Shown here: piece after piece, positions 9,220-28,794 of the stretch
Numbering within the stretch: the first letter of the stretch is position 1
Layout: the number at the start of each line of letters is the position of its first letter
From: an uncultured Pelotomaculum sp.
Lineage (GTDB): Bacteria > Bacillota > Desulfotomaculia > Desulfotomaculales > Pelotomaculaceae
DNA length: 64,000 bases
Assembly (NCBI GenBank): GCA_964543575.1
Contig: CAZIYV010000001.1
Span: 1,408 to 65,407 of the forward strand
Direction: 5' to 3'
Translations under genes and position numbers: made by a program
Notes under the pieces: model-generated
What the model was told of the DNA's origin: nothing
Seen by the model: the letters and a program-made list of their open reading frames with translations, nothing else
The model's database searches: none

Positions 9220-10386
9220 TTAATTATTGAAATTAGCCAGCCATAACCCAAACTCACCCAATTTTTCTGATAGTTTTGAAGGATGATCTATATCCCCGTA
9301 TTTTAATATTAGAGAACGTAAAATGGGACGGTTAAGGCCTCGGAGGACAAAATCTGTCTGGGAGTCTGAAAAATTGCTAAAAACCTTTCTGTACCGGAGA
9401 CCGATTTTTATTTCACTACCAATTTCTTTTTCCCATAGGTTTTGGTATAGAGCAAGTTTTTCTTCGGAAAAATTTTTCTGCTTTAGTGAACTTATAGCGA
9501 CAGTCGCGCAGTGCCTCGCGCACAGGAGACCAAAATAAAGGCCACCCCCGGATATAGGTTTAACCTGGCAGGCAGCATCGCCAACAACCATTGCGTTCTG
9601 ACCATAAGTTTTTTTTGGAAAGCCTAAAGGGACAATACCCCCTGTTTGCTGTTTTATTTTCATGTTTTTGAAGAATTCAGGGTATTTAGCCGCAAGCTGT
9701 TGAAAGCAAAGAAGAGGACTTATTTTATTATCGAATACACCTGCTCCTACCCGTGCGCTTTGTTTGTCCAGAGGAATAATCCAACCGAACCAACCAGGAG
9801 AGACCGGTTTTCCAAGGAAAATTTTTACCAATTCACTTTCTTTACTTGGCAGTTCCACTTCTGCCGCAAATAATTTAACTTTTACTTTTGGCGAAGGCAT
9901 GCCGATAAATTGTGCTACCAGAGAGTTTACTCCTTCAGCGCCGATTATTAAGGGTGCTCTAAACAATCTATGCTGATCACCGGAGGTTGTTTTAACAACA
10001 ATTTCAGATCCGCTCCTTTCAAGGCCGGTTGCGCGGGTTGAAACCAGTACCTCCGCTCCGGCGTTGACCACCTGCAAATACAACTGGCGATCAAGTGAAG
10101 GCCTATCTATAGCAAGGGCATATACTCTATTGCCTGTAAGCGGCATAACCACCCCGGAAGGTGAGTAGACCAGTGCGCCTTTAAGCTCGTTAATAACTAT
10201 ATCATTATTAACGCCTGCCAGCTCAAGTACGCCGGGGCTGACCAGCCCGGAGCACTGCAGCGGTTTCCCGATATCAGGATGTTCCTCAAGCACAAGAACG
10301 CTGAATCCACCAAGGGCTATATCCCTCGCGACCGACAGGCCTGCCGGCCCCCCGCCGAGCACAACCACGTCATAATCCATTAGCAT
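9220..10386 (-). CDS. Geranylgeranyl reductase family flavoprotein (archaeal DGGGPL-reductase-like)
   Basis: VVVLGGGPAG, PLQCSG, IDRPSLD, PGWFGWIIP and GDAACQVKPISGGG motifs. Confidence 0.88.
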   Translation of the reverse strand: MLMDYDVVVLGGGPAGLSVARDIALGGFSVLVLEEHPDIGKPLQCSGLVSPGVLELAGVNNDIVINELKGALVYSPSGVVMPLTGNRVYALAIDRPSLDRQLYLQVVNAGAEVLVSTRATGLERSGSEIVVKTTSGDQHRLFRAPLIIGAEGVNSLVAQFIGMPSPKVKVKLFAAEVELPSKESELVKIFLGKPVSPGWFGWIIPLDKQSARVGAGVFDNKISPLLCFQQLAAKYPEFFKNMKIKQQTGGIVPLGFPKKTYGQNAMVVGDAACQVKPISGGGLYFGLLCARHCATVAISSLKQKNFSEEKLALYQNLWEKEIGSEIKIGLRYRKVFSNFSDSQTDFVLRGLNRPILRSLILKYGDIDHPSKLSEKLGEFGLWLANFNN

Positions 10387-10433
10387 ATACCATCCTTTGC
10401 CAGAGTTCCAGTTAATTTAGAATTCTAATTAAT

Positions 10434-10565
10434 ATCATATGTGATTTGACAGGCTATAGTTACCATATTTAGCCGTATGGAATCATGTCCCAAAACAAAT
10501 TTGTTTTTCATTACATTAAATGTTTATATTTCTATCGAACTATTTTTAGTGCCTTTGAATAATAT
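10434..10565. promoter_or_regulatory. Divergent pair of sigma-K-type promoters
   Basis: Minus strand: AC-N17-CATATGAT (10434-10460) for the reductase. Plus strand: AC-N17-AATAATAT (10539-10565) for DUF1616. Confidence 0.55.
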
Positions 10566-10624
10566 AGATGAGCCAATAAATTGAATGTGGTTAAATTACT
10601 CAATAGAGGAAGTGGAGAACCGGC

Positions 10625-11086
10625 TTGAAGTGGCTGGATAAAATTATTTCGATAGTGTTGGTAGGCGCTATTTTTTTTGTTGTTGGCAGCATTTACTACG
10701 TGAGTACCGCAGCCAAGACAGGGGAGATGTTTACAGAGTTCTATATCCTGGGTTCCGGTGGCAAAGCCGAAGGTTACCCCCGGGAGATGGTACAGGGCGA
10801 GGAAAAAGAAGTAATCATAGGCATCGTTAACCACGAGTACCGGACCGTAACCTACTGTATAGAGGTGCGCATGGGTGATTACCTGAAAAATTACAAGCGT
10901 TCTTTAAAAATAGAGCATGAGCAGAAGTGGGAAGAATCGGTGTCCTTTAGTTCTGAAGAGCCCCATGAAAACCTTAAGGTGGAATTCCTGCTGTTTAAAG
11001 AGGAGGATAATGAGCCCTACCGCTCGCTGCATTTATGGGTGAATATACGTCAAAAAACCCCCGCCCTGTTAGATGGGGATTATTGA
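10625..11086 (+). CDS. DUF1616-domain membrane protein (C-terminal part only)
   Basis: One TM helix, then FTEFYILGSGGKAEGYP, IGIVNHEY and PYRSLHLWV, which are characteristic of DUF1616. Confidence 0.82.
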   Translation: MKWLDKIISIVLVGAIFFVVGSIYYVSTAAKTGEMFTEFYILGSGGKAEGYPREMVQGEEKEVIIGIVNHEYRTVTYCIEVRMGDYLKNYKRSLKIEHEQKWEESVSFSSEEPHENLKVEFLLFKEEDNEPYRSLHLWVNIRQKTPALLDGDY

Positions 11087-11850
11087 AATCCGTAATTATA
11101 GATAAACACTGCATTTACCTGTGGGTGTACGTTTTAGCCATCAGTGCGGCGGAACTGGTGACCACTTACGTCAACCCCATGTATGGCATCATCTGCCACG
11201 TGCTCCTTCTCATCGGGTTGCTGACGCACGCTGCCCTGACTTTCCGGGAAAAAGTCAATGTCGTATATTCGGCCCTGGGTCTGGTGCCGCTGATCCGGAT
11301 TATGAGTCTGACCATGCCTCTTGTGCGGGTACCCCCTATCTACTGGTACCTGGTGATCAGTGTTCCCTTGTTCGCCGCCACGGCTTCAGTGGTCCGGCTG
11401 GCCAGTTTTAAGTCCCGTGATATCGGCCTGATCGTGGGTAACCTACCCCTGCAAATGACAATAGGTTTACTAGGAGTGCCGCTCAGCTTCATGGAGTACC
11501 AGATCTTGAAGCCAAGTCCTCTTGTAGGTGAAATGACTATTCAGCAACTCTGGCTTCCCGCGCTGGTCCTGCTGCTAAGCACCGGTTTTTTAGAGGAGCT
11601 AATCTTCCGGGGTGTGATATTCCGGGCTGTAGTCATTGCATATGGCAGTTTTTTTGCAACCCTCTATACGTCTTTTATCTTTGCTATACTACACACCTTT
11701 CACCGCTCTTTTGAGGATTTAGTTTTTGTCTTCGTTGTTGCTTTAATCTTCTCTGTAATAGTAGACTCCTCCCGGTCAATTTTGGGGGTGTCCCTGGCTC
11801 ACGGTCTCACCAATATAGGATTGTATCTGATTTGGCCTTTTTTGTCGTGA
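11083..11850 (+). CDS. CPBP-family (Abi/CAAX type II) intramembrane glutamic protease
   Basis: Start refined to TTG 11083, overlapping the DUF1616 stop. EELIFRG, FAILH and HGLTN motifs; multiple TM helices. Confidence 0.9.
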   Translation: MKSVIIDKHCIYLWVYVLAISAAELVTTYVNPMYGIICHVLLLIGLLTHAALTFREKVNVVYSALGLVPLIRIMSLTMPLVRVPPIYWYLVISVPLFAATASVVRLASFKSRDIGLIVGNLPLQMTIGLLGVPLSFMEYQILKPSPLVGEMTIQQLWLPALVLLLSTGFLEELIFRGVIFRAVVIAYGSFFATLYTSFIFAILHTFHRSFEDLVFVFVVALIFSVIVDSSRSILGVSLAHGLTNIGLYLIWPFLS

Positions 11851-11904: not shown

Positions 11905-12180
11905 GTGATTTCCACGGTTACCACGATTACTACTACCACTACTACTGCCAGCACCGTCACCATGGCCACAGCTTTTACAGCCGTGCTGGGGTTGCTTGCT
12001 GCTATCACCCTCATTGTCTTGCTTATCGTCAAAGAACTGGCAGGAGCCGCGTCAGAGTCCTCGTCTACCCCTGAATTCACCCTTCAAGGGGCGCTTGACA
12101 GGGTTTTGAATGTAGGCATCGTTCCCCTGCTGATAGTTTTTGCCTTCATTGTCGTAGTAAAGGTTATGGATATTCTATAA
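11905..12180 (+). CDS. Small Thr-rich two-TM membrane protein
   Basis: Strong SD AAAGGAGG before GTG. 13 Thr and 2 Ser in the first 25 aa, followed by two hydrophobic helices. Confidence 0.85.
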   Translation: MISTVTTITTTTTTASTVTMATAFTAVLGLLAAITLIVLLIVKELAGAASESSSTPEFTLQGALDRVLNVGIVPLLIVFAFIVVVKVMDIL

Positions 12181-12346
12181 CTATTAAGTCATAAGTTTAT
12201 GAATTAAGGGTGCCATCCGGTTTTGCACTGAAGGGGCGCCTTTTCTTCTTATGGCGTGGGACAAAATCCATATATATTTAAGCTTAACTGTGAAGCCATT
12301 AATTAAAAAGATATCTTCATATTGCCATATTGTTAGTTATACAGTA

Positions 12347-12399: not shown

Positions 12400-13032
12400 T
12401 TGAAGCCTAAGCTTGAACAGATTCCATTAATACCGCAAGATATTTTAAGCGCTCAACAAAAACAAATTTATAAACTATACTGTCAGGGGCTTTCCAACAA
12501 AAAGATTTCAGAAGAGTTAAATCTGGAACAAAGATCAGTTGCAACCCAGCTATCGCGTATTAGAAAGAAAGCAGCAAACCTCGGTTTCACATACAAAATC
12601 GAACAAGGGGCGGAGTATGCTCAATATCAGGTGCAGCAAGATTCTCCGGCTGACGAATTTAAAAAGAAAATCCAGAATGATCCGGGATTTTTTAAATTAA
12701 TGTTTAACAGATACGGCAAGAACGAAAATTCTCAAAAAGAAAATAGCTACAGGCTTGCTTCCACCGGCCAGGACACGGCGCTACTTTTAACCGTAAGAGC
12801 AAAACAGGTAAAAACTATGGTAGTATCCAGCAAAGGTTCAAGCCTTGGTAAAATAGCGGTAAAAATGGGGAAAGATGCTCGGAAGGTGCTGGGAGACTAT
12901 CTATATAAACAAAAAATCAAACCATTGCAGACTTATTGGGATGACGGCAGCGCGGTTTATCTGGTTACACCCGTTGATTTTAAAAAAATGCAACAACAGT
13001 ATAACCAGGAGTGCAATAATCAAATCCTGTAG
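12400..13032 (+). CDS. LuxR/GerE-type HTH protein with unknown C-terminal domain
   Basis: LSAQQKQIYKLYCQGLSNKKISEELNLEQRSVATQLSRIRKK fits the LuxR C-terminal HTH; GGAGGTGG SD. Confidence 0.75.
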   Translation: MKPKLEQIPLIPQDILSAQQKQIYKLYCQGLSNKKISEELNLEQRSVATQLSRIRKKAANLGFTYKIEQGAEYAQYQVQQDSPADEFKKKIQNDPGFFKLMFNRYGKNENSQKENSYRLASTGQDTALLLTVRAKQVKTMVVSSKGSSLGKIAVKMGKDARKVLGDYLYKQKIKPLQTYWDDGSAVYLVTPVDFKKMQQQYNQECNNQIL

Positions 13033-13055: not shown

Positions 13056-13778
13056 ATGAATTACCATTACCAAAAAGAGAATATGCAAGGGAAAAGGCTC
13101 GTTTCTTTTGTTATACCAGCGTTAAACGAAGCGGAAGCAATTCAGGATGTAGTAAAAGCCATACCCAAAGAAATGATGGCGGAACTTGGATACAAAACTC
13201 AGATACTTGTAATTGACAATGGCTCTACAGACGGTACCGGCGAACTGGCGAAACAGGCTGGAGCAGATGTGGTGCTTGAAGAGCGAAGGGGTTATGGCCG
13301 GGCATATAAAACAGGATTTGAGATGGCAAAAGGTCAGATAATAGTAACGGCTGATGCTGATTTAACTTATCCAGTAGAAATTTCCCCCGAACTTGTAAAG
13401 TTACTTGAGGAACAAGAATTAGACTTTATTACGACAAATAGATTTTCAAAAATGGAAAAGACTGCTATGTCAATCCGTAATAAAATCGGGAATAGAATTC
13501 TTAATCTGACAACGAGGTTGCTTTTTTTTGTCGATTTAGAAGACTCCCAATCAGGAATGTGGTGTTTTAGAAAAGATATTCTAAGTCAAATAAAACTCAT
13601 ATCTGATCATATGCCCTTTTCACAGGAATTAAAAATAAAAGCTATAGGTAGTAAAAAGCTTAAGTGGCTCGAGGTGCCTATTGAGTATAGATGTCGGGTA
13701 GGTCAAGTAAAGTTAAGCGGGTGGAAGGACGGCTTTTTAAATTTCCTGCACCTTCTAAAGCTCCGGTTGGATATTTAA
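13056..13778 (+). CDS. DPM1-like polyprenol-phosphate glycosyltransferase (GT2)
   Basis: VIPALNEA, IDNGSTDGT, RGYGRA, TADADLTYP, DSQSG and EVPIEYR motifs. Confidence 0.88.
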   Translation: MNYHYQKENMQGKRLVSFVIPALNEAEAIQDVVKAIPKEMMAELGYKTQILVIDNGSTDGTGELAKQAGADVVLEERRGYGRAYKTGFEMAKGQIIVTADADLTYPVEISPELVKLLEEQELDFITTNRFSKMEKTAMSIRNKIGNRILNLTTRLLFFVDLEDSQSGMWCFRKDILSQIKLISDHMPFSQELKIKAIGSKKLKWLEVPIEYRCRVGQVKLSGWKDGFLNFLHLLKLRLDI

Positions 13779-13810
13779 CACCACATGGGATACCGGAAAT
13801 AGGACATAGG

Positions 13811-14785
13811 ATGTTGACGATGATGAAGATAAAAGTTTCCATAGTTATTCCCACCTTGAATTGCGCTGAAGTATTGGAGCAATGCTTAATCTCCATACGC
13901 CGGAATATTTGCAAATATGATTATGAAATAATCATTGTTGACGGCTCGAGCCGGGACGATACTGTTGCTGTCGCCGGCAAGTACGCCGACAGGATACTGA
14001 TTGAAGAGACATTTTTCAGGGGTGTTAACCGGAATAAGGGAGTGAAAGCTGCCGCCGGGGAAGTAATTTGCTTTACCGATAGCGATTGTGTTGTTCCCGA
14101 AAACTGGATAAACACTTTAGTGGACTGGTTGATTGAGCTAAACAAAAAAGATTCCAAAATAGTTGGCGTTGGAGGGGGTAATTTACCCTTTGTTCCCCCA
14201 AACGCTGATACCAAAGAATTGGCCATATCCTGCACATTAAGAACGCCCCTTGCTTCCTTCGGCGCAAGAAATATGGTGGAAAAATATGATAAACCGGTGG
14301 AAGTAGACCATAACCCACCAGTGAACTCCGCCTTATTCAAAGAAAAAATCCTGGAAGTTAGGGGTTTTTGCGAAAAAAACAATATCGGCGAGGATTTGAT
14401 CCTTGATGCCAGATTAAGAGCGAAAGACTATAAATTGTATGCTGTGCCAGGCTGCGAGGTTATGCACAAACATAGATCCGGCTTTGAAAAACTGATTAAA
14501 CAAATGTTTGCTTTCGGGCAGGCAAGGGTGAGGACCGGCAGAATATACCCATCGTTTTTCTCGTGGTACCATTGGGGTCCGGCCATTCTTTCGTTATTGA
14601 CTTTAAGTCCCTTAATAGTTATCCCATTTTTGCTTAGTTTAACGAATGGAGCGTATGTAATATATAAAAACAAAAGGCCCCCTCTTTTTTTTTACGCTTT
14701 TGGTGTAACCTGGAGCACTTATTTTTTTTATGGGCTGGGCGAAATTATTGAATTTATTAGGAGAAAAAATAATGCCAATTGTTAG
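13811..14785 (+). CDS. GT2 glycosyltransferase with C-terminal TM helices
   Basis: VSIVIPTLN, VDGSSRD, FTDSD and GED motifs. Confidence 0.88.
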   Translation: MLTMMKIKVSIVIPTLNCAEVLEQCLISIRRNICKYDYEIIIVDGSSRDDTVAVAGKYADRILIEETFFRGVNRNKGVKAAAGEVICFTDSDCVVPENWINTLVDWLIELNKKDSKIVGVGGGNLPFVPPNADTKELAISCTLRTPLASFGARNMVEKYDKPVEVDHNPPVNSALFKEKILEVRGFCEKNNIGEDLILDARLRAKDYKLYAVPGCEVMHKHRSGFEKLIKQMFAFGQARVRTGRIYPSFFSWYHWGPAILSLLTLSPLIVIPFLLSLTNGAYVIYKNKRPPLFFYAFGVTWSTYFFYGLGEIIEFIRRKNNANC

Positions 14786-16268
14786 AGTTCTTTTTCTTAA
14801 TCCTCCGTCAATTTCAAAATTAGATACAGCAGGTGCGAGATTTCAAGCCAGGAGAAAGGCCAATACATTGTGGTACCCTATCTGGCTGGCATATGCCGCC
14901 GGGGTTTTGGAAAATGAATTCGAGTCCTTTTTAATCGACTGTCCCGCTGAGGGAATTAAATTGCCTGATTTGACCGGCAAACTGGCTCAAATAAGGCCTC
15001 AGGTAATAGCGGTATATACAAGCACTCCCGGTATTCAAAATGATATCAGCATATGCCGGGAGATACACAATCACCTTGGAGATGTTAAAATTGTTCTGCT
15101 CGGCCCTCATGTTACAGTGTTGCCTGAAGAGACCTTGCTGCTTTCAGAGGCAGTGTGGGGTGCGGCCAGGGGGGAATTTGAATATACCATCTTGGAGTTG
15201 GCCAGGTCGGTGCGGCAAGGAGACGGTTATGAAAATATCTTGGGACTGAGCTGGAAAAATGGCGTCGATATAATCCACAATCCACCAAGGCCCCTGCTTG
15301 AGAACCTGAACGGCCTTCCTTTTGTTGCAAAGATTTATAAGAAGCATCTCAATATATCAAATTATTATTTGTCCTTCGCTCTTCATCCTTATGTATCCAT
15401 ATATGCCAGCAGGGGCTGTCCTTCCCATTGCACATTCTGTCTCTGGCCCCAGACCATAAGCGGTAACAAGCCCCGCTTGAGGACCCCCGAAAATGTAGTG
15501 GCTGAGATGGAGTATGTGTTGCAAGAGCTACCCGGCGTTAAAGAAATATTCTTTGACGACGATACCTTTACCGCACACCTGGACAGAGTTCATCAGATAT
15601 GTGACTTGATCAAAGAGCGGAATATAAATATCAGCTGGTCGGCAAACGCCAGGGCAAATGTGGATTTGCCCACCTTGCAGAAAATGAAAAGCGCAGGGTG
15701 CCGGTTGCTGGTTGTAGGTTATGAGAGTGCAAACCAGGAGATTTTAACAGCCATTAAAAAGGGCGTAACCTTAAGCCAGATGGAGGTGTTTACAGAAAAT
15801 GCCAGGAAAGCGGGCATTATGCTGCATGGAGCATTCATCATAGGATTGCCCGGTGAAACTAAATATACGATCAATAACACCATTGAGTTTGCTAAAAGAA
15901 TGCAGCTGGCAAGCGCACAGTTTTCCATAGCCACTCCTTTGCCCGGAACCGGCTTCTATCAATGGTGCCGTGACAATAATTTCCTGAAAAATGAACAATA
16001 TGACGCGCTGCTGGATAAAGCGGGGTATCAAAATTGTGTGGTGGAATACCCAGGGCTGAGTGCGGAAGAGATAAGCGAGGCTGTGGACCGCGCAACCGAA
16101 ATTTTCTATTTCAGACCACGCTACTTATTGACCATGCTGAAGCAAGTGGTTCAGGATTACCGGGAATTGAAAAGAATACTGCTTGGTGGGCTGGGATTTG
16201 TAAGTTATTGTATTCAACGCCGGTGGAAGAAATACATAAAGACCACACCGGAGGATGACGCGACTTGA
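14772..16268 (+). CDS. B12-binding radical SAM protein (HpnJ-like)
   Basis: GARFQARRK..LWYPIWLAYAA N-terminus, GPHVT, SRGCPSHCTFC (CxxxCxxC) and FFDDDTF. Confidence 0.88.
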   Translation: MPIVRVLFLNPPSISKLDTAGARFQARRKANTLWYPIWLAYAAGVLENEFESFLIDCPAEGIKLPDLTGKLAQIRPQVIAVYTSTPGIQNDISICREIHNHLGDVKIVLLGPHVTVLPEETLLLSEAVWGAARGEFEYTILELARSVRQGDGYENILGLSWKNGVDIIHNPPRPLLENLNGLPFVAKIYKKHLNISNYYLSFALHPYVSIYASRGCPSHCTFCLWPQTISGNKPRLRTPENVVAEMEYVLQELPGVKEIFFDDDTFTAHLDRVHQICDLIKERNINISWSANARANVDLPTLQKMKSAGCRLLVVGYESANQEILTAIKKGVTLSQMEVFTENARKAGIMLHGAFIIGLPGETKYTINNTIEFAKRMQLASAQFSIATPLPGTGFYQWCRDNNFLKNEQYDALLDKAGYQNCVVEYPGLSAEEISEAVDRATEIFYFRPRYLLTMLKQVVQDYRELKRILLGGLGFVSYCIQRRWKKYIKTTPEDDAT

Positions 16269-17539
16269 ATATATGCGTAATATGTCCTGAAATCGGAAAT
16301 CATCAAGGCAATGCTTTTATAGGTGGAGGGGTGAATAACGCCGTTCGATTAGCAAAAGGATTGACGGCCAGGGGGCACCGGATTACCATTATCACCACCA
16401 GCCACCGTCACCCGGGGGAGCAGCCCGCCAGTCCTAAGGACGGGGCCGAAGTTCACTGCCTGCTGGTCTGCGGCAGGTATTTATCGTTTGTCTACGGTTT
16501 TCTGTTTGCCGTAATGGCGCTTTTAAAGGTAAGAGCGCTTCACCATACAAAAAATTTCGATATTGTCCATGTTCATTCAGGCTATGCCGTTATGGGCCTG
16601 CTCACTGCTATGCTTAAAAAAATCACCGGCATTCCTGCCGTCCATACGCTTTATTGCGCGCCCGGCAGGATATGTGATACCCGGAAAAGGCAAGCAGCGG
16701 CACTGCTTTCCCTTTCATGTTTGGCCAGGATATATTTGAGGAGCATAGATAGAATTATAGCGATCAGTAATAATATTTACAACTCTTTGCTCAGTATAGG
16801 CTTGCCGGTAAACAATCTGGCCTTGATATCCCCAGGCATAGATATTAATATTTATAATCCCTGGATTAAAACCGGAATAAGAGACCAGTTCATGTTTGCG
16901 CCTGAGGATCCGGTAGTGCTGTATATAGGCAATTTAAGTGAGAAAAAAGGTTTGCGTATACTCATAGAATCGCTCTTTATAGTGAAACAGTACTATCCTG
17001 GCGTAAAACTTCTCATGGTGTTAAACATACCAGTTAATATGTACCACGGGTTGAATTGTTGCCGCAAAGAAGATGATTGGGCTAACCTCAAAGAGATAAA
17101 AGAAAGAATCATGGAGTACGGCTTGAACGAACAGGTGATTCCTATCGGCTTTATACCTAATATGAATGAAATCATGTCGGCCAGTGATGTTTTGGTCCTT
17201 CCCTTCCTGGATATCTCCGGTATAGCTGATTACCCCATCTCGGCCATTGAGGCCATGGCCTGCGGAAAACCGCTGATAGCAACCAGAATCGGCGGAATCC
17301 ATGAGATAGTAATTCACCGGGAGAACGGTTTGCTTGTGAATCCCGGGGATGTTTGCGAGCTTACCGATGCAATTCTATATTTACTGAGTAATAAACAGGT
17401 GGCACAGAAAATGGGGGCGCGGGCTTTTGAACTGGCTTCCAAAAGATTTCGCCTGGAAACCATATTGAATCAGTATGAAAGTATTTACAGGGAGGTTGGC
17501 GGATTACATCATCATGATTGTGGCGATTGTCGGGATTGA
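16265..17539 (+). CDS. GT4 glycosyltransferase
   Basis: DIVHVHS, KKG and IEAMACGKPLIATRIGGIHEIV motifs. Confidence 0.9.
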   Translation: MNICVICPEIGNHQGNAFIGGGVNNAVRLAKGLTARGHRITIITTSHRHPGEQPASPKDGAEVHCLLVCGRYLSFVYGFLFAVMALLKVRALHHTKNFDIVHVHSGYAVMGLLTAMLKKITGIPAVHTLYCAPGRICDTRKRQAAALLSLSCLARIYLRSIDRIIAISNNIYNSLLSIGLPVNNLALISPGIDINIYNPWIKTGIRDQFMFAPEDPVVLYIGNLSEKKGLRILIESLFIVKQYYPGVKLLMVLNIPVNMYHGLNCCRKEDDWANLKEIKERIMEYGLNEQVIPIGFIPNMNEIMSASDVLVLPFLDISGIADYPISAIEAMACGKPLIATRIGGIHEIVIHRENGLLVNPGDVCELTDAILYLLSNKQVAQKMGARAFELASKRFRLETILNQYESIYREVGGLHHHDCGDCRD

Positions 17540-18131: not shown

Positions 18132-18132
18132 G

Positions 18133-20032: not shown

Positions 20033-20045
20033 GGCGGGTGCGGCC

Positions 20046-21326
20046 ATGTCAAAAGCAGTAATCAAGGCTGGCGGCTTATCCAAGCGCTATCGGATAGGTG
20101 CTGCTGTAAAAGGCTATAAGACCTTCAGTGAGGCGCTGGTGGAGAGTATAACAGCGCCGGCTAAAAACCTGGCTAAGCTAAAAAGCATGACCAGGTTCAA
20201 AGACACTCCGGAGGAAAACAGCATCTTGGTGCTCAACGACGTTTCCTTTGAGGTTGACGAGGGGGAGGTCCTGGGCATCATCGGCGGTAATGGGGCAGGC
20301 AAAACCACTCTATTGAAAATACTGTCCAGGATCACCTGGCCCACCGGCGGTCAGGTGGAAATATACGGCAGAATATCAAGCCTGTTGGAGGTCGGCACAG
20401 GGTTCCACCCAGAGCTTACAGGCAGGGAAAATATTTTTTTAAACGGCGCCATATTAGGCATGAGAAAGCGTGAAATCGAGAAGAGGTTTGATGAAATAGT
20501 CGACTTCGCCGGATTGGAAAAGTTTTTGGACACACCTGTAAAGCGATATTCCAGCGGCATGTATGTCAGGCTGGCCTTTTCCGTGGCGGCGCATCTTGAG
20601 CCGGAAATACTGCTGGTGGATGAAGTGCTGGCCGTAGGTGATCTGGCCTTTCGGAAAAAATGCCTGGGCAAGATGGGTGACATATCCCAAAGCGGACGCA
20701 CAGTTCTTTTCGTGAGCCACGATATGGGGGCCGTCAGAAATTTATGCGGCTCCGCCATCTGGCTGGATAGTGGAAAAATGATGAAAAGGGGCGCTCCTCC
20801 TGAAATAATCAGGCTGTATCAGGAAAGCCAGCTACAGCTCTATGGTAATACCTCCTGCGTTGTAGAAAGAAGTTATGAAAATATAAAAAACAAGAGCTTG
20901 TATTTTAGCCGTGTCGAAATATGTAACGTAAAAGGTGAGTACGCCAACACATTTAAGTATGGTGAGCAGGTAATTCTCCTGGTCAACCTGGATGGCGGCA
21001 TAACTTCAGGAGATTACAGCCCAGAATTCTATATTTACAATGAACTGGGGCAACTGGTTTCCGTGGGGGCCTCAGGTCCCTACCACGGCCAGTACTTTGG
21101 GGCAAAAGTTAAAAGGCTGCGCATTGAAATCGGGCCTTTGATTCTCACCAGCGGACAATACGCCATTTCTCTAAGTGTGATATATAAAATGTCACGCGCC
21201 GATACCTGGGAGAATGCTGTTGGTTTTAATATTACCAAATGTCAGCCCTTTGCGGCAGAATGTGATATCCCCACCTTCAGGGAAGGGGTTTGTGTTTTAA
21301 ACCAGTCCTTTGCGCGAGCAGATTGA
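20046..21326 (+). CDS. wzt: ABC glycan export ATPase with C-terminal Wzt_C domain
   Basis: GGNGAGKTT, GTGFHPELTGREN, YSSGMYVRLAF and LLVDE motifs; about 170-aa C-terminal extension. Confidence 0.92.
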   Translation: MSKAVIKAGGLSKRYRIGAAVKGYKTFSEALVESITAPAKNLAKLKSMTRFKDTPEENSILVLNDVSFEVDEGEVLGIIGGNGAGKTTLLKILSRITWPTGGQVEIYGRISSLLEVGTGFHPELTGRENIFLNGAILGMRKREIEKRFDEIVDFAGLEKFLDTPVKRYSSGMYVRLAFSVAAHLEPEILLVDEVLAVGDLAFRKKCLGKMGDISQSGRTVLFVSHDMGAVRNLCGSAIWLDSGKMMKRGAPPEIIRLYQESQLQLYGNTSCVVERSYENIKNKSLYFSRVEICNVKGEYANTFKYGEQVILLVNLDGGITSGDYSPEFYIYNELGQLVSVGASGPYHGQYFGAKVKRLRIEIGPLILTSGQYAISLSVIYKMSRADTWENAVGFNITKCQPFAAECDIPTFREGVCVLNQSFARAD

Positions 21327-21358
21327 TATAAACATGTAGTCCAATGAGTGAGGTTAAT

Positions 21359-22789
21359 ATGGAGGAAAAAATTAACAAAGTATTGTATCCCGGTAATCTT
21401 CCTGTATTTGGCGCTCCCGGCTACCACCCGCAATTCGAGCATCTCAATAATCCCCCGGAAGGCTACAAGTTTATTCACGCAAGCGCCGGCAGGTTATCCA
21501 AATTATTGCGCCTGCTTATTATAATAATAAACTGGTTCTTTTCTCCCGGAGGAATCAAGGTAAAATTAGAGGCTGTATTGAGGTTCATCAGAAGAAAGAG
21601 CTACAGAACTGAATTGCAGCGCTTTTACAATCACAAAAACACTTCACCTGATCGTGAATATGTCCACATAAGAAGCCTGGAATATTTTAAAATAACTAGA
21701 TGCCTTTTTGCCACTGCAGTCAAATTATTAATTAATGCCAAAAGAAAAGGCGCAAAACTAAGGGGAGCCGTTGGATTTTTACTGACAAGGGATATATTAT
21801 CGCAACTAATGATGCCGGTTAATGTTAAACTGGCATTTTTACCTTCTTTTCCTTGCATTCTCGGACAGATACCCTGGGTTGTGGAAATCGAGGATCCTCT
21901 GACTTTATTCATACCTTTTGTGCACACCGGCTTTACGAGCGGTGTAAAAATACATGACATCTCCTGTTACTCCTATGTTAAGGCGCTTATTGAAGATGAA
22001 AGCTGCAGAGGCATCATTTGTCACGTTAAATCAACAGCAGAGGCACTGCCGGTCCTTTTTGACAATGATGAACTGAAGAAAAAAATATTTTATATACCTA
22101 TCGGCGTCAGCCTGCCGTCAGCGTCCAGTCAGGTTGAGAGGCGAAGTGAAAAGGAAACCATAATATTGTTTACAAACTCGTGGCACCAGAGCGCGGGCGG
22201 CTTTTACATGAGGGGAGGTCTTGATCTCCTCGAGGCATTCTCTATCCTCGCTTCAAAATACACTAATATAAAAATGATTCTCAGGACTGCCCTACCCGGC
22301 AATTTAGACGAACGCTATCTAAATATGATCAAGAACAACAACATTGAAGTCATAGATTATTTTCTTCCTGCCGGCGCTATGGAAGATCTTTTATCGGGAG
22401 CGGATATTTACGCCTTGCCCGCGGCCCGGCTCCACGTGGTATCCACACTGAAAGCGATGGCCCATGGCCTGGCGGTGCTGGTTTCAGACGGCTGGGGCTT
22501 TGAAGATTATATTGAGCACGGGCGCAACGGTTTGACGGCAAAGGGAAGGTACGGAAAGTGTTCATGGATGGACCGGTACGGGATGCTCAGGGAAGATTAC
22601 AAGCCGCTGTTTGAGAGTGATCCCGTGGTGGCAGACAGCATAGCTGATAATTTATCCCTGCTCATCGAAAACCCGGTATTAAGAAAAAAACTGGGCGATG
22701 CCGCGAGAAGAGACGTTGAGACCAGGTTTTCAATAGATAACTGGAATAAGAGTCTTTCTGAGGTGTTTTGTAAGTCCATGACATCATAG
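21359..22789 (+). CDS. Divergent GT4 glycosyltransferase
   Basis: RGGLDLLEAF, ADIYALP and LKAMAHGLAVLVSD..GFEDYIEHGRNG motifs. Confidence 0.8.
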   Translation: MEEKINKVLYPGNLPVFGAPGYHPQFEHLNNPPEGYKFIHASAGRLSKLLRLLIIIINWFFSPGGIKVKLEAVLRFIRRKSYRTELQRFYNHKNTSPDREYVHIRSLEYFKITRCLFATAVKLLINAKRKGAKLRGAVGFLLTRDILSQLMMPVNVKLAFLPSFPCILGQIPWVVEIEDPLTLFIPFVHTGFTSGVKIHDISCYSYVKALIEDESCRGIICHVKSTAEALPVLFDNDELKKKIFYIPIGVSLPSASSQVERRSEKETIILFTNSWHQSAGGFYMRGGLDLLEAFSILASKYTNIKMILRTALPGNLDERYLNMIKNNNIEVIDYFLPAGAMEDLLSGADIYALPAARLHVVSTLKAMAHGLAVLVSDGWGFEDYIEHGRNGLTAKGRYGKCSWMDRYGMLREDYKPLFESDPVVADSIADNLSLLIENPVLRKKLGDAARRDVETRFSIDNWNKSLSEVFCKSMTS

Positions 22790-22828
22790 GTATAAAATAC
22801 TAACAATTCCCTGGAAAAGGATGATAAA

Positions 22829-24178
22829 GTGAAAGTTTTATTATTTAATTCATGTTTCATATCAAAAAGAAAAGATCAGATTGAAATTACAACTCCGCAC
22901 ATAAGAATAGGAATAAGCAGTATAGCTTCTTACTTGAGGGAAAAAGGAATAGATGTGCGCCTGGTTGATCCCGAAATAGATAAACTAAACCTGCAAAATA
23001 TCAAAAGAATAATCCTTGATTATTCTTTTGATATGGTAGGGTTGCCCGCATATACGGAAGAGATCAGTGACGCGTCAACAATTGCAGCGACTGTTAAAGA
23101 CACTAATCCTTGTATCATAACCGTTGTGGGAGGGCCGCATGTTTCCGCGTTACCTGAAGAAACATTAACAGAATTCAGTTCATTTGATGTGGGTGTTATA
23201 GGAGAAGGGGAACAGGCATTTTTAGAATTGGCAGAGGGAAAAGAAATAAAAGATGTTAATGGAATAGTATACCGGGCTGGTAATAATAATATTGTTCGGA
23301 ATCCACCCGGGAAACTAATTAGCTCTTTAGATAAGCTTCCGCTTCCGGCATGGGATTTATATGATATTAAGAAATATGGGGACACCCTGCCCATAGAACC
23401 TTTAAGAGGATGTCCATTTTCTTGTGTTTTTTGCTTCAGAACCTTAGGACGTAAGGTAAGATACAAAAGCCCGGAAAGAATAGCTGATGAAATAGAAAAC
23501 AACATCGTGAAGTACGGCATAAGGTCATTTCAGTTTCTAGCCGGTACATTCCCAATTAGTAAACAACATGCGATTGCGGTATTTGATGAGATAATAAAAA
23601 GGGACTTAAAAATAAAGTGGGGCAGCAGTGTCAGGGTAGATACAGTCAATGAAGAATTACTAATAAAGATGAAAGAAGCTTCATGTGAAAGGCTGCAGTT
23701 TGGAGTTGAATCCGGAGATCCCGATCTGCTTAATCTGTGCGGGAAAGGCACCAAACTGGAGGATATAAAAAGTATTTTTAAAGTTTGTTCAGACATCGGA
23801 ATAAAAGCTGGAATGAATTTTATATTGGGTTTGCCTTACGAAAGTGAAGAATCAATTTCCCGAACTATAAGATTTGCTTCAGAGTTGAGAGAGCATTCCA
23901 GCAGCGCCAATTTTGCCATTTTGGTTCCATTTCCCGGGACCAAAGTATATGATATGGCAATAAGGAACGAGGCCGGGTTGGAATTGTGCACCAGGGATTG
24001 GGTTAATTATGGCAAGCAGGCCGGTCTGGCTTTAAGGCATCAACATTTCCCCGGTACCAGGCTCAATAAAATTCAAACAAAACTTTATTTCTCTTATTAC
24101 ATGCAAAAAAATCCACTTAAACTGTTAAAATATTTTTCACGGAAGAGGATATCACAGCTAATAAAAGGATACATTTGA
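22829..24178 (+). CDS. B12-binding radical SAM protein
   Basis: GGPHVS, GEGE, RGCPFSCVFC and GVESG motifs. Confidence 0.88.
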   Translation: MKVLLFNSCFISKRKDQIEITTPHIRIGISSIASYLREKGIDVRLVDPEIDKLNLQNIKRIILDYSFDMVGLPAYTEEISDASTIAATVKDTNPCIITVVGGPHVSALPEETLTEFSSFDVGVIGEGEQAFLELAEGKEIKDVNGIVYRAGNNNIVRNPPGKLISSLDKLPLPAWDLYDIKKYGDTLPIEPLRGCPFSCVFCFRTLGRKVRYKSPERIADEIENNIVKYGIRSFQFLAGTFPISKQHAIAVFDEIIKRDLKIKWGSSVRVDTVNEELLIKMKEASCERLQFGVESGDPDLLNLCGKGTKLEDIKSIFKVCSDIGIKAGMNFILGLPYESEESISRTIRFASELREHSSSANFAILVPFPGTKVYDMAIRNEAGLELCTRDWVNYGKQAGLALRHQHFPGTRLNKIQTKLYFSYYMQKNPLKLLKYFSRKRISQLIKGYI

Positions 24179-24254
24179 CATTATTAAGTAGTAAACATTT
24201 TATTGGCGATTTGTTTGTTAAAGTAAGAATATTTTAGGAGACTTAATAGATAAA

Positions 24255-25148
24255 ATGGTATTTAATAATATTACTATTGATGACAAAGAAGAATTAGTAT
24301 GTAATTATCCAATGGTTAGTGTCATAACCCCTGTTCTAAATGGTGTTAAATACTTGGAGAGCTGTATTGATAGTGTTTTAAACCAGAGTTATTATAATGT
24401 TGAGCATATTTTTGTTGATGGTGGCTCAGACGATGGTACCTTGAATGTAATTAAGAATTACATTTCTAAATTTCCTTATAGAATTAGACTACTATCAGAG
24501 CCCGATAAAGGTGTTGGTGATGCTTTAAATAAAGGCATTAAAATGGCAAACGGAGAAATTATAGGATGGTTAGATTCAGATAGTTATTTTGAAAAAAATA
24601 CAATTAATATAGTTGCAAATTATTTCAAAAACAATCCAGGCGCTTATGTTGTCTTTGGAGAATGCTGTCTTGTAAATGAAAACAATGAAATCATTGGGAA
24701 ATACCCAATTAAGGATTTTGATCTAAAAGAAGCAATAACAAATAGATGTTGTATTCCATTTCAATCTACCTTTTACAAAAAAAAGTTGTTTGAAAGAGTT
24801 GGTTTATTTAATGATTTGGGGAATTGTCAGGAGTTCTGGATTAGAACTGGTAAGTGCTTTACGTTTTATAGAATTCAATCGGTTCTTTCCAATAATAGAT
24901 TAGATGAGGAAGGAATTTTTTTTTCAAAGGACGTTGATAAAAGAAAAGTATTAAAAAACAGATTGCGTGAAGATTGTAATATGTGTATACAACACGGTGG
25001 TTCATTTTTAGCGCCACGGGTTAGAAGATATTATATTTTTATGTTATTTGACAAATTGGGTCTTTATAGCATTATTGCCAGTGTAATTTTAAAAAACAGG
25101 TATCGATATTGTCTGATAGATAAGATATTAAGAGCGCTAAAAATTTAA
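24255..25148 (+). CDS. GT2 glycosyltransferase (WfgS-like)
   Basis: VSVITPVLN, VDGGSDDGT, EPDKG and GWLDSD motifs. Confidence 0.88.
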   Translation: MVFNNITIDDKEELVCNYPMVSVITPVLNGVKYLESCIDSVLNQSYYNVEHIFVDGGSDDGTLNVIKNYISKFPYRIRLLSEPDKGVGDALNKGIKMANGEIIGWLDSDSYFEKNTINIVANYFKNNPGAYVVFGECCLVNENNEIIGKYPIKDFDLKEAITNRCCIPFQSTFYKKKLFERVGLFNDLGNCQEFWIRTGKCFTFYRIQSVLSNNRLDEEGIFFSKDVDKRKVLKNRLREDCNMCIQHGGSFLAPRVRRYYIFMLFDKLGLYSIIASVILKNRYRYCLIDKILRALKI

Positions 25149-25184
25149 ATTCTGGCAACTAGATTTTCAAAAGGATTAATTATT

Positions 25185-27428
25185 ATGGTAAAAAGCTTAA
25201 AAATAATATCTTTTGTTTTGCTGATATTAATACACTTTTTAGTATGGTATAGTATAAAGTTGGAAGTTCCATATTTTAGGCAATTAATTTGCTTTATATA
25301 TCTTATATTAGTGCCCGGAAGTATTTTAATAAAATTATTCCAGCTAAAAAATATGTGCTTTTTTGAAAGATTGGTTTACACCATTGGTTTAAGCATATCA
25401 TTTGTCATTATTATTGGATTAATAATCAATACAGCATATTTGCTTTTAAAAATATTAGAGCCAATATCTGTTGTACCATTAATGACTGCAATTAATATTG
25501 CAGTCATTATTCTCTATATCATATACGTAACAAGAGAATGGGAATGCCCAGAATTATGTTGCGACAGGTTTATTAAATGCATTAAAACGAATTTTTCCAG
25601 TTCGGCATTTTTATGCTACTTGCTTCCTGTCTTAAGCATCATTGGAGCCAGTGCGGTTAATTATTATAATAATAATGTGGTTTTTTTTGCTTTAATAATT
25701 ATAGAGGTTATAATTATTGTCTTGATTGGCTTTGATTTATTTAACAACAAAAGCCTTTATCCTTTGGCTATTTTTTCAATTGCGCTCTCATTAGTGTTTT
25801 ATAGAACAATGATCACAACGTTTATTTCCGGTACGGATATACATCAGGAATACTATGTGACGAATTTAGTAATCAGAAATGCTACCTGGGATTTTAGCTT
25901 TTCAAATAATTACAACAGTGTGCTTTCTGTTGCTATATTTGTACCGGTTATTTCAGTTTTATGTAATATTGGCTTGGGTTGGGTTTTAAAAATTTGTTGT
26001 GGTTTAATCCTATCCATGGTGCCTTTATGCATATACTTTTTTTGTCTAAAACAATCCAACGGGAAATTGGCTATCTTTTCGAGTTTTTTGTTTGTGGGAG
26101 GTTCATATTTTTATACAAATTTGCCGGTTATGGTGAAGCAGCAGATCAGTATGCTGTTTTTTGTTTTACTAATATTACTCATGGTTGACCGGCAGATCGG
26201 CAAAGTAGTCAAGACGGTTATGCTGATTATATTTGGTTTTTCATTGTCAACTACTCATTATGGGTTAACATATATTTATGTTTTATTTATTGCGGCAGGC
26301 GCACTGGCAAAAAAACTAAATAGTTCTTATAAATCAAAAAAAGCTTGCGCTATTGATACTCCTTCCAGAATTGCCGAAAGAGACAGTGTAATTACAACTA
26401 CCTTTATTTTTTTTATGATTGTAGTCTCTTTATCATGGTACATGTATATTGCCAAATCCTCTTCATTTGATGCGATTGCGCGGTTCGGCATGCACGTTAT
26501 CGACAGTGTTGTCAATGATTTTTCAGCAACAACATCTGTCGCGGAGAAATTAAATGAGGCAAAGCAGGTGACTATATCCTTAACAATAATAAACTTAATT
26601 AATATTATTATAAATTATTTCATAAGATTATGTGTAATTGTTGGTTTTGTATCGGCATTATTAAAGCCTGAGAATTATAAGTTCAATAGAGAATACATAG
26701 CATTTTCTATTCCTGCTTTTCTTGCTTATTTAAGTTGCATCGCTCCTCCCTTCATTTCCCCTTTACTGTCGGGGAGTATGGATTTATCGCGTGTCGTAAA
26801 TATATTATTTCTAGTTTTATCGCCTTATTGTGTTCTTGGAATTATTATTCTAATAAGAGTAATGCTGCGTATATTTAAAGCTCAAAGAGAAAAATATGTT
26901 ATTGGAAAAGCACACTATGTGCTGATATCATTAGTACTCAGCCTGTATTTTATATTTCAAACCGGTTTTGTTTTTGAGTTGGCATGGAATGGCAGTTCAA
27001 ATTCAGTTTCCATAGGTCAGGAGGGTATAAGAAAAAATGGTACATTAGAACAAAGGATAACTTTGTATGACGTGCTTACTCTTAAGCAGGATGTCTTAAG
27101 CGCTGAATGGTTGGGAAAATATAGAGAACCACTCGAAAAGATATATGCTACATACAATGACATAAGAGTTCACACGCTAACAAGTTATGGCATGATTCCG
27201 GTGCAAGATGTGTCAAAAATATCGGAAAATGCTTATGTAAAAATTGAAAATGGAGCTTATGTCTACCTGCAGCCCCTCAATATCATTGAGGGGTGGGGAA
27301 CAGAATTTGACGCCGGCGCTCCTCGTGGCATGAGGCACACTTATTTTCGAATGGACGATATGTATTATCATTTGTCAGGCGAAAAATCCAAAATATATTC
27401 AAATGGGGGAAGTGAAATATATAAGTAG
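25185..27428 (+). CDS. DUF2206-family polytopic membrane protein (probable GT-C fold)
   Basis: Many TM helices; GTDIHQEYY..NLV, YNSVLSV, KQQI, THYG and KIYSNG motifs recalled from archaeal DUF2206 proteins. Confidence 0.75.
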   Translation: MVKSLKIISFVLLILIHFLVWYSIKLEVPYFRQLICFIYLILVPGSILIKLFQLKNMCFFERLVYTIGLSISFVIIIGLIINTAYLLLKILEPISVVPLMTAINIAVIILYIIYVTREWECPELCCDRFIKCIKTNFSSSAFLCYLLPVLSIIGASAVNYYNNNVVFFALIIIEVIIIVLIGFDLFNNKSLYPLAIFSIALSLVFYRTMITTFISGTDIHQEYYVTNLVIRNATWDFSFSNNYNSVLSVAIFVPVISVLCNIGLGWVLKICCGLILSMVPLCIYFFCLKQSNGKLAIFSSFLFVGGSYFYTNLPVMVKQQISMLFFVLLILLMVDRQIGKVVKTVMLIIFGFSLSTTHYGLTYIYVLFIAAGALAKKLNSSYKSKKACAIDTPSRIAERDSVITTTFIFFMIVVSLSWYMYIAKSSSFDAIARFGMHVIDSVVNDFSATTSVAEKLNEAKQVTISLTIINLINIIINYFIRLCVIVGFVSALLKPENYKFNREYIAFSIPAFLAYLSCIAPPFISPLLSGSMDLSRVVNILFLVLSPYCVLGIIILIRVMLRIFKAQREKYVIGKAHYVLISLVLSLYFIFQTGFVFELAWNGSSNSVSIGQEGIRKNGTLEQRITLYDVLTLKQDVLSAEWLGKYREPLEKIYATYNDIRVHTLTSYGMIPVQDVSKISENAYVKIENGAYVYLQPLNIIEGWGTEFDAGAPRGMRHTYFRMDDMYYHLSGEKSKIYSNGGSEIYK

Positions 27429-28791: not shown

Positions 28792-28794
28792 GCG

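Follow-up and report, generated by a model that had tools for sequence, protein, structure and literature searches.

The locus and its genes

The subject of this study is a window of 64,000 nt, the whole stretch of DNA that was analysed, from the genome (89.8% complete) of an uncultured Pelotomaculum sp. It concerns in particular a 91-aa Thr-rich protein, called here the microprotein, and the CPBP-family peptidase encoded beside it. An initial annotation had described six genes of this window as an archaeal-type protein-glycosylation module: a geranylgeranyl-reductase-family flavoprotein (GGR), a DUF1616 protein, the CPBP protease, the microprotein, a DPM1-like GT2 glycosyltransferase and a DUF2206 membrane protein. 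Open reading frames and profile searches place all six where that annotation had put them (Table 1). They are embedded in a 38-kb glycan cluster, for which Pfam identifies an initiating sugar transferase along with several members of the GT2 and GT4 families, three B12 radical-SAM proteins, a Wzm/Wzt exporter and genes for nucleotide sugars.

Table 1 Features of the glycan cluster, in positions of the window
Feature	Position	Strand	Basis and remarks
Geranylgeranyl-reductase-family flavoprotein (GGR)	9220..10386	-	TIGR02032; divergent
DUF1616 protein, short form	10625..11086	+	PF07760
CPBP (Rce1-like) putative glutamic intramembrane peptidase	11083..11850	+	PF02517; reading frame open from 11035
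91-aa microprotein	11905..12180	+	MISTVTT Thr-rich tail, helix 1, KEL, loop, helix 2
Short inverted repeat followed by a T-rich run, possible terminator	12205..12248	+	read by eye; not called by the terminator scan
Helix-turn-helix (HTH) regulator, sigma70 region 4 / LuxR-like	12400..13032	+	PF08281, PF00196
DPM1/AglJ/GtrB-like GT2	13056..13778	+	best models AglJ TIGR04182 and NF041391, both below cut-off
Variable glycan assembly/export block	13691..25148	+	Pfam; GT2, two GT4, two B12 radical-SAM, kinase, nucleotidyltransferase, Wzm/Wzt ABC exporter, GT2
DUF2206 GT-C-fold membrane protein	25185..27428	+	PF09971
Nucleotide-sugar supply genes	27492..38129	+	Pfam; E1 alpha/beta pair, epimerases, aminotransferase, third B12 radical-SAM gene, YdjM-like gene

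The layout first described holds for the genes themselves and for the downstream position of the GT2 and DUF2206 genes, and probably fails for the overlap between the CPBP and DUF1616 genes. The reported 52-nt overlap is probably an artefact of choosing the first ATG. An in-frame TTG at 11083, preceded by GGGGA, overlaps the DUF1616 stop by four bases (TTGA) and the homologues align from residue 14-17 on, so that this TTG is probably the start; CPBP residue numbers are nevertheless counted here from 11035. The downstream genes are also less tightly linked than the initial description implied: the HTH gene intervenes between the microprotein and the GT2, and the DUF2206 gene lies 13.0 kb from the microprotein, with ten other genes in between. 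A homologue of the HTH gene is found together with the GT2 and the GGR in another locus (L125). The guanine-cytosine (GC) content is 0.33 in the DUF2206 gene and 0.30 in the preceding GT2 gene, against 0.48 in the genome. A strong AAGGAGG precedes the microprotein gene. A promoter and terminator scan of the window returned nothing above the chance level, and there is no tRNA within it.

The microprotein family

The microprotein has no family match in Pfam, NCBIfam or the PDB. A word-seeded search returned 96 homologues, and an unfiltered HMMER search gave 1,340 clusters at 50% identity, 373 of them with an E-value of 1e-10 or lower. With few exceptions, the members are stand-alone proteins of 76-105 aa, in which a Thr-rich tail precedes a helical hairpin. 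Glu44, Pro74 and Phe79 are invariant in both alignments, the last two being located on helix 2. The window protein lacks Cys, and none of the columns of the family alignments has a conserved one. The tail has an average of 18 residues, about 10 of which are Ser or Thr; it is uncharged and almost devoid of N-sequons. Its register is fixed at residue 1 and its length varies freely through Thr runs. The most conserved positions are 1-7 and not the junction with helix 1, which is enriched in small residues (Ala, Gly, Ser). Of the 143 newly found top representatives, 134 begin with Met and are no longer than 105 residues. Among these, position 2 is Ile, Val or Leu in 120; Ser or Thr occupies position 3 in 112, Thr position 4 in 116, Val or Ile position 5 in 118 and Thr position 6 in 121, figures that are inflated by the presence of the motif in the seeds and profile of the homologue searches. 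The tail shows no clear helical or beta register. In 94 of 120 sequences, Lys and Arg outnumber Asp and Glu in the loop that joins the helices, and this net positive charge suggests a topology in which the tail faces outwards.

In the RNA data for a methanogen locus (L155), the contigs over all or part of the microprotein and the next gene are deeper than those over the CPBP gene in 6 of 7 runs (about 1,760 on the microprotein side against 21 in run X2, for example), a contig depth that cannot rank genes and is not evidence of high expression. All of these runs are assembled contigs, and in one of them a single contig spans the microprotein through the CPBP gene.

The CPBP protease and its predicted complex with the microprotein

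The CPBP protein (PF02517, 55 bits against a cut-off of 22.4) is the sole PF02517 match in the genome. Its residues E187, E188, F191, R192, H220, H256 and N260 are invariant in the 69 members of its clade, and the motifs EExxxR, FxxxH and HxxxN are intact; further invariant residues are found in the N-terminal helices. Non-catalytic CPBPs such as LnsB have altered motif positions (PMC13559823). Judging from its sequence, the window protein looks active and cognate to the microprotein. The nine helices, together with the TPR domains fused to the N-terminus of methanogen relatives and the LysM domains fused to the C-terminus of Chloroflexota relatives, fit a protein with its N-terminus inside and its C-terminus outside the cell. 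A PDB search with the CPBP profile gave no match. In Chloroflexota, LysM fusions occur on both CPBP and DUF1616 proteins (L012, L025, L030, L075 and L155 form the set of loci with TPR, LysM or tandem arrangements).

The CPBP, DUF1616 and microprotein chains were predicted together in three runs, each chain with its own alignment (63, 55 and 63 rows, respectively). The CPBP-microprotein complex scored 0.83, against 0.00 for the best of three controls; 116 of 157 solved complexes and 2 of 215 mismatched pairs attain this mark, in a calibration that is only rough when chains have their own alignments. The runs agree in at least 70% of contacts, with a partner predicted local distance difference test (pLDDT) of at least 67. 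The best contacts connect helix 2 of the microprotein (69-78) to CPBP residues 63, 83-86 and 110-119. The listed interface includes residues 1-5 of the microprotein and T183, E187, H220 and N260 of the CPBP protein, and residues 21-35 of helix 1 also touch the protease; E188, R192 and H256 are not among the listed residues. DUF1616 makes no confident contact with the microprotein in the three-chain model, which is evidence neither for nor against an interaction. Since sequence searches find no solved relative of either protein, it is less likely that the score merely reproduces a known structure. The model supports the idea of an enzyme-substrate relationship, and it seems very likely indeed that the CPBP protein and the microprotein are a cognate pair.

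The model also bears on where a cut would be made. In one scenario the hairpin is a disposable handle, and the protease would cut the glycosylated tail at its junction with helix 1, or within helix 1, to release a peptide-primed exopolysaccharide or glycopeptide. The contacts of helix 1, the small residues at the junction and the freely varying tail length are compatible with such shedding, and MroQ, another CPBP, has been reported to cleave a peptide off its membrane-bound leader (bioRxiv 2021.12.29.473670, available part). Nevertheless, conservation peaks at the tip of the tail rather than at the junction, and of the catalytic residues only those on the inferred outer side are listed in the interface, so that this scenario is rather unlikely.

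Covariation of the tail and the protease

A match to the profile starts at tail position 1-4 in 26 of the 27 genomes of the window's class that carry this CPBP, the other one lying at a contig end. Nine genomes of the class have a microprotein match without this CPBP. Two of these matches are hairpins with unrelated N-termini, two are hairpins fused to a GpsB/DivIVA-like coiled coil, two are Ig-hairpin proteins accompanied by a paralogous CPBP, two lack the tail part (in at least one case because the contig ends there) and the last is an intact orphan. The MISTVTT motif is absent from the hairpins of CPBP-less genomes in L123, L124, L126, L127, L140, L141, L162 and L163. In addition, three divergent Chloroflexota CPBPs (L139, L143, L146) group together in the tree (support 98, long branches) and lie next to hairpin proteins whose tails end in a Tyr-Asp-x-x-Ser-Thr-Thr-Ala-Gly motif. 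Tail and protease vary together. The pairwise distances of the two proteins are correlated as well (rho 0.63, permuted maximum 0.19), a result set aside as evidence of coupling because shared ancestry explains it.

Five genomes have a paralogous set composed of a DUF1616-like helix-plus-Ig gene, a second CPBP and a 240-aa Ig-plus-hairpin protein; hhalign relates the DUF1616-like gene (82%) and the hairpin of the 240-aa protein (94%) to their counterparts. This set lies in L116-L120 (e.g. L117:10861-13078), and a YdjM-like gene comes next in L116. Such a natural fusion of an Ig domain to a hairpin with its own CPBP could suggest that the protease ligates, the free N-terminus of the microprotein being the nucleophile to which a cargo protein or another tail would be joined, to give an anchored protein or a covalent Thr-rich glycofilament. 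The fixed N-terminal register would suit this role. So would an N-sequon-rich secreted protein of the Methanobacteriota, with a conserved C-terminal P-x-L-C motif and sometimes a lipobox, which follows the microprotein in 15 of the 80 best loci (L155:9633-10256(-), L036, L041, L158, L159, L168 and others). Yet this protein is confined to methanogens and dissimilar to the fusion protein (hhalign probability 0.2), which leaves a link between the two unsupported. Moreover, the available part of the Haft preprint argues that CPBPs lack the means for one-step transpeptidation (bioRxiv 2023.06.07.544157). Ligation consequently appears very improbable. A second secreted family often follows the P-x-L-C protein, and these methanogen secreted proteins have no Pfam, NCBIfam or PDB match.

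Distribution of the module

A search for the microprotein confirmed 104 genome loci, and the locus counts given here refer to the best 80 of them, many of which end at short contigs. These 80 come from Bacillota, Chloroflexota, Methanobacteriaceae, Bathyarchaeota and single delta- and gammaproteobacterial bins. With the profiles built here, the CPBP gene is present in 63, always at most 6 kb from the microprotein gene and within 500 bp of it in 41. DUF1616 was found in 48 loci, GGR in 18 and DUF2206 in 2. Glycan genes are present in 59 and a membrane transferase candidate in 33, many loci being incomplete. The window's class was sampled with 139 genomes of 85% completeness or more, of which 36 have the microprotein, 27 the CPBP, 38 DUF1616, 37 GGR and 7 DUF2206. 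All 27 CPBP carriers also have the microprotein and DUF1616, 26 have GGR, and the seven DUF2206 carriers are all among them; 95 genomes lack the microprotein, CPBP, DUF1616 and GGR. The microprotein is found in 23 and the CPBP in 20 of the 201 Chloroflexota sampled, all 20 having both; the corresponding counts for 151 Methanobacteriota are 75 (one match with stops) and 72, of which 71 are shared. The microprotein and CPBP profiles include rows from some of the genomes counted.

The linkage of CPBP, microprotein and DUF1616 is therefore far beyond chance, and the neighbourhood conservation that the initial annotation had set beforehand as a test extends across Bacillota, Chloroflexota and methanogens. 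The CPBP and microprotein genes stay adjacent despite rearrangement, being found in tandem, convergent or separated by inserts. The conserved core is the microprotein and one CPBP clade, usually with DUF1616. What did not hold is the idea of one fixed six-gene module: only 7 of the 27 CPBP carriers of the class have DUF2206, other membrane transferases replace it elsewhere, and GGR matches occur in only 6 of 20 Chloroflexota carriers.

The CPBP tree separates archaea from bacteria (96) and groups the Bacillota (99), whereas six Bacillota DUF2206 sequences fall in five places among methanogen rows. Both are quick trees with long branches. From the lineage-wise CPBP tree and the scattering of DUF2206 among methanogens, the core would be old in this lineage and the transferase swapped along with the glycan. 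If "archaeal-type" was meant as a recent import, it is not supported for the core; DUF2206 alone looks exchanged with methanogens.

The hairpin is also kept in some genomes without the CPBP, and many CPBPs work by binding rather than by catalysis (PMC13559823). The microprotein could instead be a stoichiometric subunit or a pro-peptide-like inhibitor of the protease and not its substrate or a glycan acceptor, with DUF2206 adding side sugars to a lipid-linked polymer or modifying other Thr-rich proteins, which do exist in the genome. The stable predicted interface would suit a permanent partner, and hairpin homologues persist with DUF1616 and a GT-C enzyme where the CPBP is absent. Several observations make this alternative unlikely all the same: the catalytic residues are invariant throughout the clade, no other conserved candidate substrate follows the CPBP gene across lineages among the neighbour clusters, and the Ser/Thr content of the tail exceeds what binding through residues 1-5 would need. 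Proteolysis of the microprotein by the CPBP protein is the probable interpretation.

Several side observations concern the distribution of individual genes. The genome itself has a second glycan locus on contig C32 (L114:8572-9486(-) and L134), where a fusion of the hairpin to a GpsB/DivIVA-like coiled coil heads an operon. The other genes of this operon include those for a GT-C-like protein of 591 aa, a complete DUF1616 and a Thr-repeat protein of 618 aa. Two genomes of the same genus have the hairpin fusion and GGR, one of them also DUF1616, without the CPBP. In one subgroup, the CPBP and microprotein genes are separated by an agr-like cassette (histidine kinase, AgrB, 46-aa AgrD-like peptide and LytTR regulator) together with a gene for a secreted protein; the cassette occurs in seven loci, two of them on the same contig (L129:4547-8764; L001, L002, L008, L132, L133).

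DUF1616

The DUF1616 protein of the window matches only positions 150-307 of the 307 of PF07760 (132.8 bits). This short form consists of one helix and an outward Ig-like domain and lacks the N-terminal membrane module, which DUF1616 has in common with the N-terminus of DUF2206. The full-length copy is the one on contig C32. In some methanogens DUF1616 is tandemly repeated. The family has so far been described only as a predicted secretion component (arCOG02884; PMC5898192, a prediction repeated in PMC6393860) and as a Haloferax protein, HVO_2173, that is itself N-glycosylated (PMC8241124), as far as the accessible parts of these sources extend. DUF1616 is taken to be a non-catalytic accessory.

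Given that prediction, DUF1616, CPBP and the microprotein might belong to a secretion or surface-assembly system of the arCOG02884 type to which the glycan genes are mere neighbours, and the CPBP-microprotein pair does lack transferase neighbours in L135-L138 and L155-L157. The hallmarks of that system are not seen here, though: MoxR ATPase, vWA and DUF4350 proteins are absent from the annotated genes of the window and from the annotated part of the 60 commonest neighbour clusters (no genome-wide search was aimed at them), and none of the seven "CAAX" rows listed from Supplementary Table 3 of PMC5898192 is in the arCOG01314/02884 sheet, in what is available of it. With the membrane module of DUF1616 shared by DUF2206, a pure secretion role is very unlikely, even slightly more so than ligation.

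DUF2206 has a GT-C fold

An AlphaFold model of DUF2206 (PF09971, 169.7 bits) built from 105 aligned sequences reached a pLDDT of 89.6 and a predicted template-modelling score (pTM) of 0.92; a single-sequence model (pLDDT 41) was discarded. All 11 Foldseek matches at E 0.001 or better are chains of oligosaccharyltransferase complexes (TM 0.36-0.40). Among the matches of a broader structural comparison, the 20 that reach Z 8 all have a GT-C fold, and the first unrelated one is at 6.9. The best matches are Pmt1/Pmt2 (Z 17.2, root-mean-square deviation 5.3 Å, 358 residues aligned), AglB (16.7, 4.4, 430), STT3B (16.7, 5.0, 446), PglB (16.5, 5.1, 442) and DPY19 (16.4, 5.5, 450). On these models, residues 183-747 form a GT-C-fold putative membrane glycosyltransferase, as the initial annotation had anticipated. 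The five top matches are tied and the acceptor class cannot be read from the fold. D218 (104/104) and E222 (103/104) follow closely on the first core helix, within the first outer loop, and are presumably equivalent to the known GT-C catalytic acid. The WWDYG motif is absent from all 105 homologues and the genome has no PF02516 (STT3) match; the absence of the motif indicates that DUF2206 is not an N-oligosaccharyltransferase. It matches none of the PMT Pfam families, even though Pmt1/Pmt2 tie for the best structural match. Its N-terminal 125 residues are related to the membrane module of DUF1616 (E 1.8e-6), which 14 DUF2206 proteins match at E 0.001 or below. A PDB sequence search with the DUF2206 profile returned nothing, and the ESM Atlas only DUF2206 or unnamed clusters.

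Within the first 39.5 kb of the window, no candidate transferase other than DUF2206 has 14 helices. A survey of 50 of the 79 microprotein-carrying genomes found it in 13: 10 of 12 archaea, 3 of 13 Bacillota, none of 23 Chloroflexota and neither of the 2 others. Other loci have distant DUF2206-like proteins (hhalign 72, 95 and 97%), WaaL-like ligases (15/80) or LCP proteins (9/80). DUF2206 is therefore an exchangeable part of the system. That it is the enzyme that glycosylates the tail in this genome is a tentative assignment, somewhat less than evenly probable.

GGR, the GT2 and the lipid carrier

The GGR protein exceeds the TIGR02032 cut-off (204.5 against 158.8 bits) and its closest solved structure is 3OZ2, the Thermoplasma DGGR (E 8.8e-32), to which it aligns with Cys45 and the active-site motif PGWFGWIIP; it is a member of this family. 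It is below the cut-offs of three DGGGPL-reductase equivalogs (116.9/580, 115.1/780 and 75.7/700 bits). No PcrB/GGGP-synthase (PF01884) match exceeds the cut-off in the genome at its stated completeness, which makes archaeal ether lipids an unlikely substrate, and that role was rejected. The genome has one cis-prenyltransferase. In the window's class, GGR occurs in 33 of 36 microprotein carriers, and 33 of 37 GGR carriers share the hairpin and DUF1616. At 1e-40, six of the 20 Chloroflexota CPBP carriers and eight other genomes without the module have a match. GGR may plausibly act on the polyprenol carrier, with about even chances, though only in some lineages. A second GGR is present in a housekeeping region of contig C52.

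The dolichol-like carrier of the initial annotation is harder to retain. A Haloferax GGR deletion lost saturated dolichol phosphate and kept saturation at the alpha position, according to the available text of PMC10821996. GGR therefore need not make dolichol, and "reduced polyprenol" is the safer term.

The GT2 falls below the cut-offs of AglJ (TIGR04182, 134 against 325 bits) and NF041391 (104.5 against 375) and matches PDB 5MLZ (E 2e-14). It may be a polyprenol-phosphate sugar synthase that works like AglJ while remaining below the AglJ equivalog cut-off. At 1e-20 it has matches in 20 genomes, 16 of which carry the CPBP, and DPM-like GT2 genes often lie directly next to GGR.

A possible route to a glycosylated membrane peptide

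The interpretation preferred here is that the microprotein is both the substrate of the CPBP protein and a glycan acceptor, its tail being glycosylated by a GT-C enzyme and its tip trimmed by the protease. We infer this whole chain with a probability of about 0.45. Helix 2 (with Pro74 and Phe79) and helix 1 are predicted to dock on the clade-specific N-terminal helices (48-122) of the protease. The Thr-rich tail would face outwards and its residues 1-5 would enter the active site from the outer side, where the first one to three residues would be removed as a maturation step. The GT2 would load a sugar on polyprenol phosphate, GGR, in this class, would saturate isoprene units of the carrier, and Wzm/Wzt would export the lipid-linked chain. 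The local GT-C enzyme, here DUF2206, would then transfer the chain to Thr or Ser of the tail outside the cell, and the product would be a membrane-anchored glycopeptide bearing a surface glycan. Glycosylation of the tail on its own is reasonably likely, though less so than its proteolysis.

Several points weigh against this interpretation. The 25 best residue pairs of the complex are all on helix 2, the placement of the tip in the active site being a reading of residue lists, and the tail counts are inflated as stated above. Related genomes are not independent samples. DUF2206 is missing in 20 of the 27 CPBP carriers of the class and in every Chloroflexota genome tested. No transferase adjoins the CPBP-microprotein pair in L135-L138 and L155-L157, and in L155-L157 there is no adjoining DUF1616 or GT-C gene either, only sugar-nucleotide genes. 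Conversely, the hairpin, DUF1616 and DUF2206 occur without an adjacent CPBP in L162, L163, L166, L170 and L171. GT-C enzymes are active on lipid-linked glycans and wall polymers as well (the ALG, ArnT and Aft matches), and ten further Thr-rich ORFs of the genome, encoding membrane or exported proteins, are possible GT-C acceptors. Finally, a complete genome (G171) has an intact microprotein, standing alone at L131:10229-10534(-), with no CPBP, DUF1616 or GGR match.

A broader version would make the abundant microprotein the dedicated primer of a cell-surface polysaccharide, in a "mini-proteoglycan" pathway common to both domains. Interchangeable transferases (DUF2206-type GT-C, other GT-C, WaaL-like, LCP) would load the Thr tail, and the CPBP protein, an N-terminal counterpart of Rce1, would mature, shed or ligate the glycopeptide. 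This generalization is speculative and on the unlikely side, a little less so than shedding or a subunit role. If it were true, methanogens and their bacterial partners would have a new mode of surface-glycan anchoring in common. Should the tail be a glycan primer, these anaerobes would anchor surface polysaccharide on a peptide instead of on lipid or the wall, with a possible bearing on granule and biofilm formation in methanogenic communities. There is a real chance that this is a new kind of glycan anchor.

Comparison with known systems

No earlier description of such a system was found in the literature searched, in line with what the initial annotation had supposed. The search covered few subscription papers and returned no description of DUF2206 function or of the microprotein, which may be listed in supplementary tables. 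The closest parallels are the myxosortases (MrtX, MrtJ, MrtS, MrtA, MrtC and MrtP, with MYXO-, JDVT-, Synerg- and CGP-CTERM signals), dedicated CPBP subfamilies that cluster with a short membrane-anchored target (bioRxiv 2023.06.07.544157, available part). The three motifs are intact in both cases. Here, in contrast, the target is a stand-alone two-helix microprotein, predicted to be recognised at its N-terminus, without a conserved Cys or a C-terminal tag and linked to glycan loci. All Mrt models score the protease below cut-off (MrtJ 34.4/75, MrtS 26.1/130 and Mrt_core 18.4/100 bits), so that myxosortase membership was rejected. MroQ of Staphylococcus aureus is also an active CPBP that matures a small ribosomal peptide, AgrD, at the membrane, as reported in the accessible part of its preprint (bioRxiv 2021.12.29.473670). 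In the present system there is no thiolactone and no conserved receptor, and since the agr cassette is confined to one subgroup, an MroQ-like signalling role was rejected as the general function.

The glycosylation half of the proposed system resembles the streptococcal Pgf and GtrB/PgtC2 systems of Bacillota, in which a GT-A polyprenol-phosphate sugar synthase and a GT-C enzyme act outside the cell on Ser/Thr-rich regions of membrane proteins (bioRxiv 2024.05.05.592596). There the GT-C is of the YfhO type, and the available text of that source describes no dedicated microprotein acceptor, protease or GGR; the PgfS model gives 45.8 bits against a cut-off of 500. Within the GT-C superfamily (Pmt1/Pmt2, STT3/AglB/PglB, DPY19, ALG, ArnT, Aft), DUF2206 is alike in its fold and in the acidic residues of the first outer loop, and differs by its 8-11% identity, the lack of WWDYG and the extra N-terminal membrane module shared with DUF1616. 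The DUF1616 protein belongs to the same family as arCOG02884 / COG4743, for which an outward Ig-like domain and short one-helix forms are also listed. In the accessible part of that source (PMC5898192), its context is arCOG01314, MoxR ATPase and vWA proteins, with no description of a CPBP or a Thr-rich microprotein. The GGR belongs, like the archaeal geranylgeranyl reductases (PMC10821996, available part), to the GG-red-SF family, with 3OZ2 as its nearest structure, and differs from archaeal DGGGPL reductases by scoring below their equivalog cut-offs. The CryoSeek glycofibrils (bioRxiv 2025.09.30.679562), whose repeat units are different in the text available, were set aside, and PMC12820599 covers epimerases only in its available part.

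These results provide a substrate candidate and a docking model for a CPBP clade found in about half of the Methanobacteriota (72/151), a fifth of the window's class (27/139) and a tenth of the Chloroflexota (20/201). DUF2206 receives its first fold assignment, GT-C, and DUF1616 is tied to glycosylation through the shared membrane module. Among the carriers that have names are Methanothermobacter sp., Methanobacterium oryzae, Desulfoscipio gibsoniae and Pelotomaculum thermopropionicum, which make the question directly testable.

Other features of the window

The nucleotide-sugar block presumably includes heptose genes (GmhA-, GmhB-, HddA- and HddC-like, names taken from the domain set). It ends the cluster with the YdjM-like membrane gene (37536-38129), homologues of which are also near the module in L012, L014, L049, L116 and L154. 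An NTP_transf_5-like gene (18118-19209) adjoins the kinase, and Transglut_core3 and NTP_transf_5 genes, which we take to be of the kind known from lasso-peptide clusters, are near the module in L030 (7386-7790) and six other methanogen loci. The divergent glycan arm encodes a lipoprotein-like protein with a Gln/Thr-rich linker and a CBM4/9 domain (3099-3830(-)) and a 405-aa exported protein without assignment (3893-5110(-)). The epimerase and WbqC genes at 5297-8997 have near-identical copies in the second locus on contig C32 (L114/L134), which suggests a recent duplication between the two clusters. Finally, positions 54397-64000 form a block of higher GC content (0.53-0.57), which presumably encodes two SLH proteins with prenyltransferase-like repeats, a DUF4430-like protein and ECF transporter genes, probably for cobalamin uptake.

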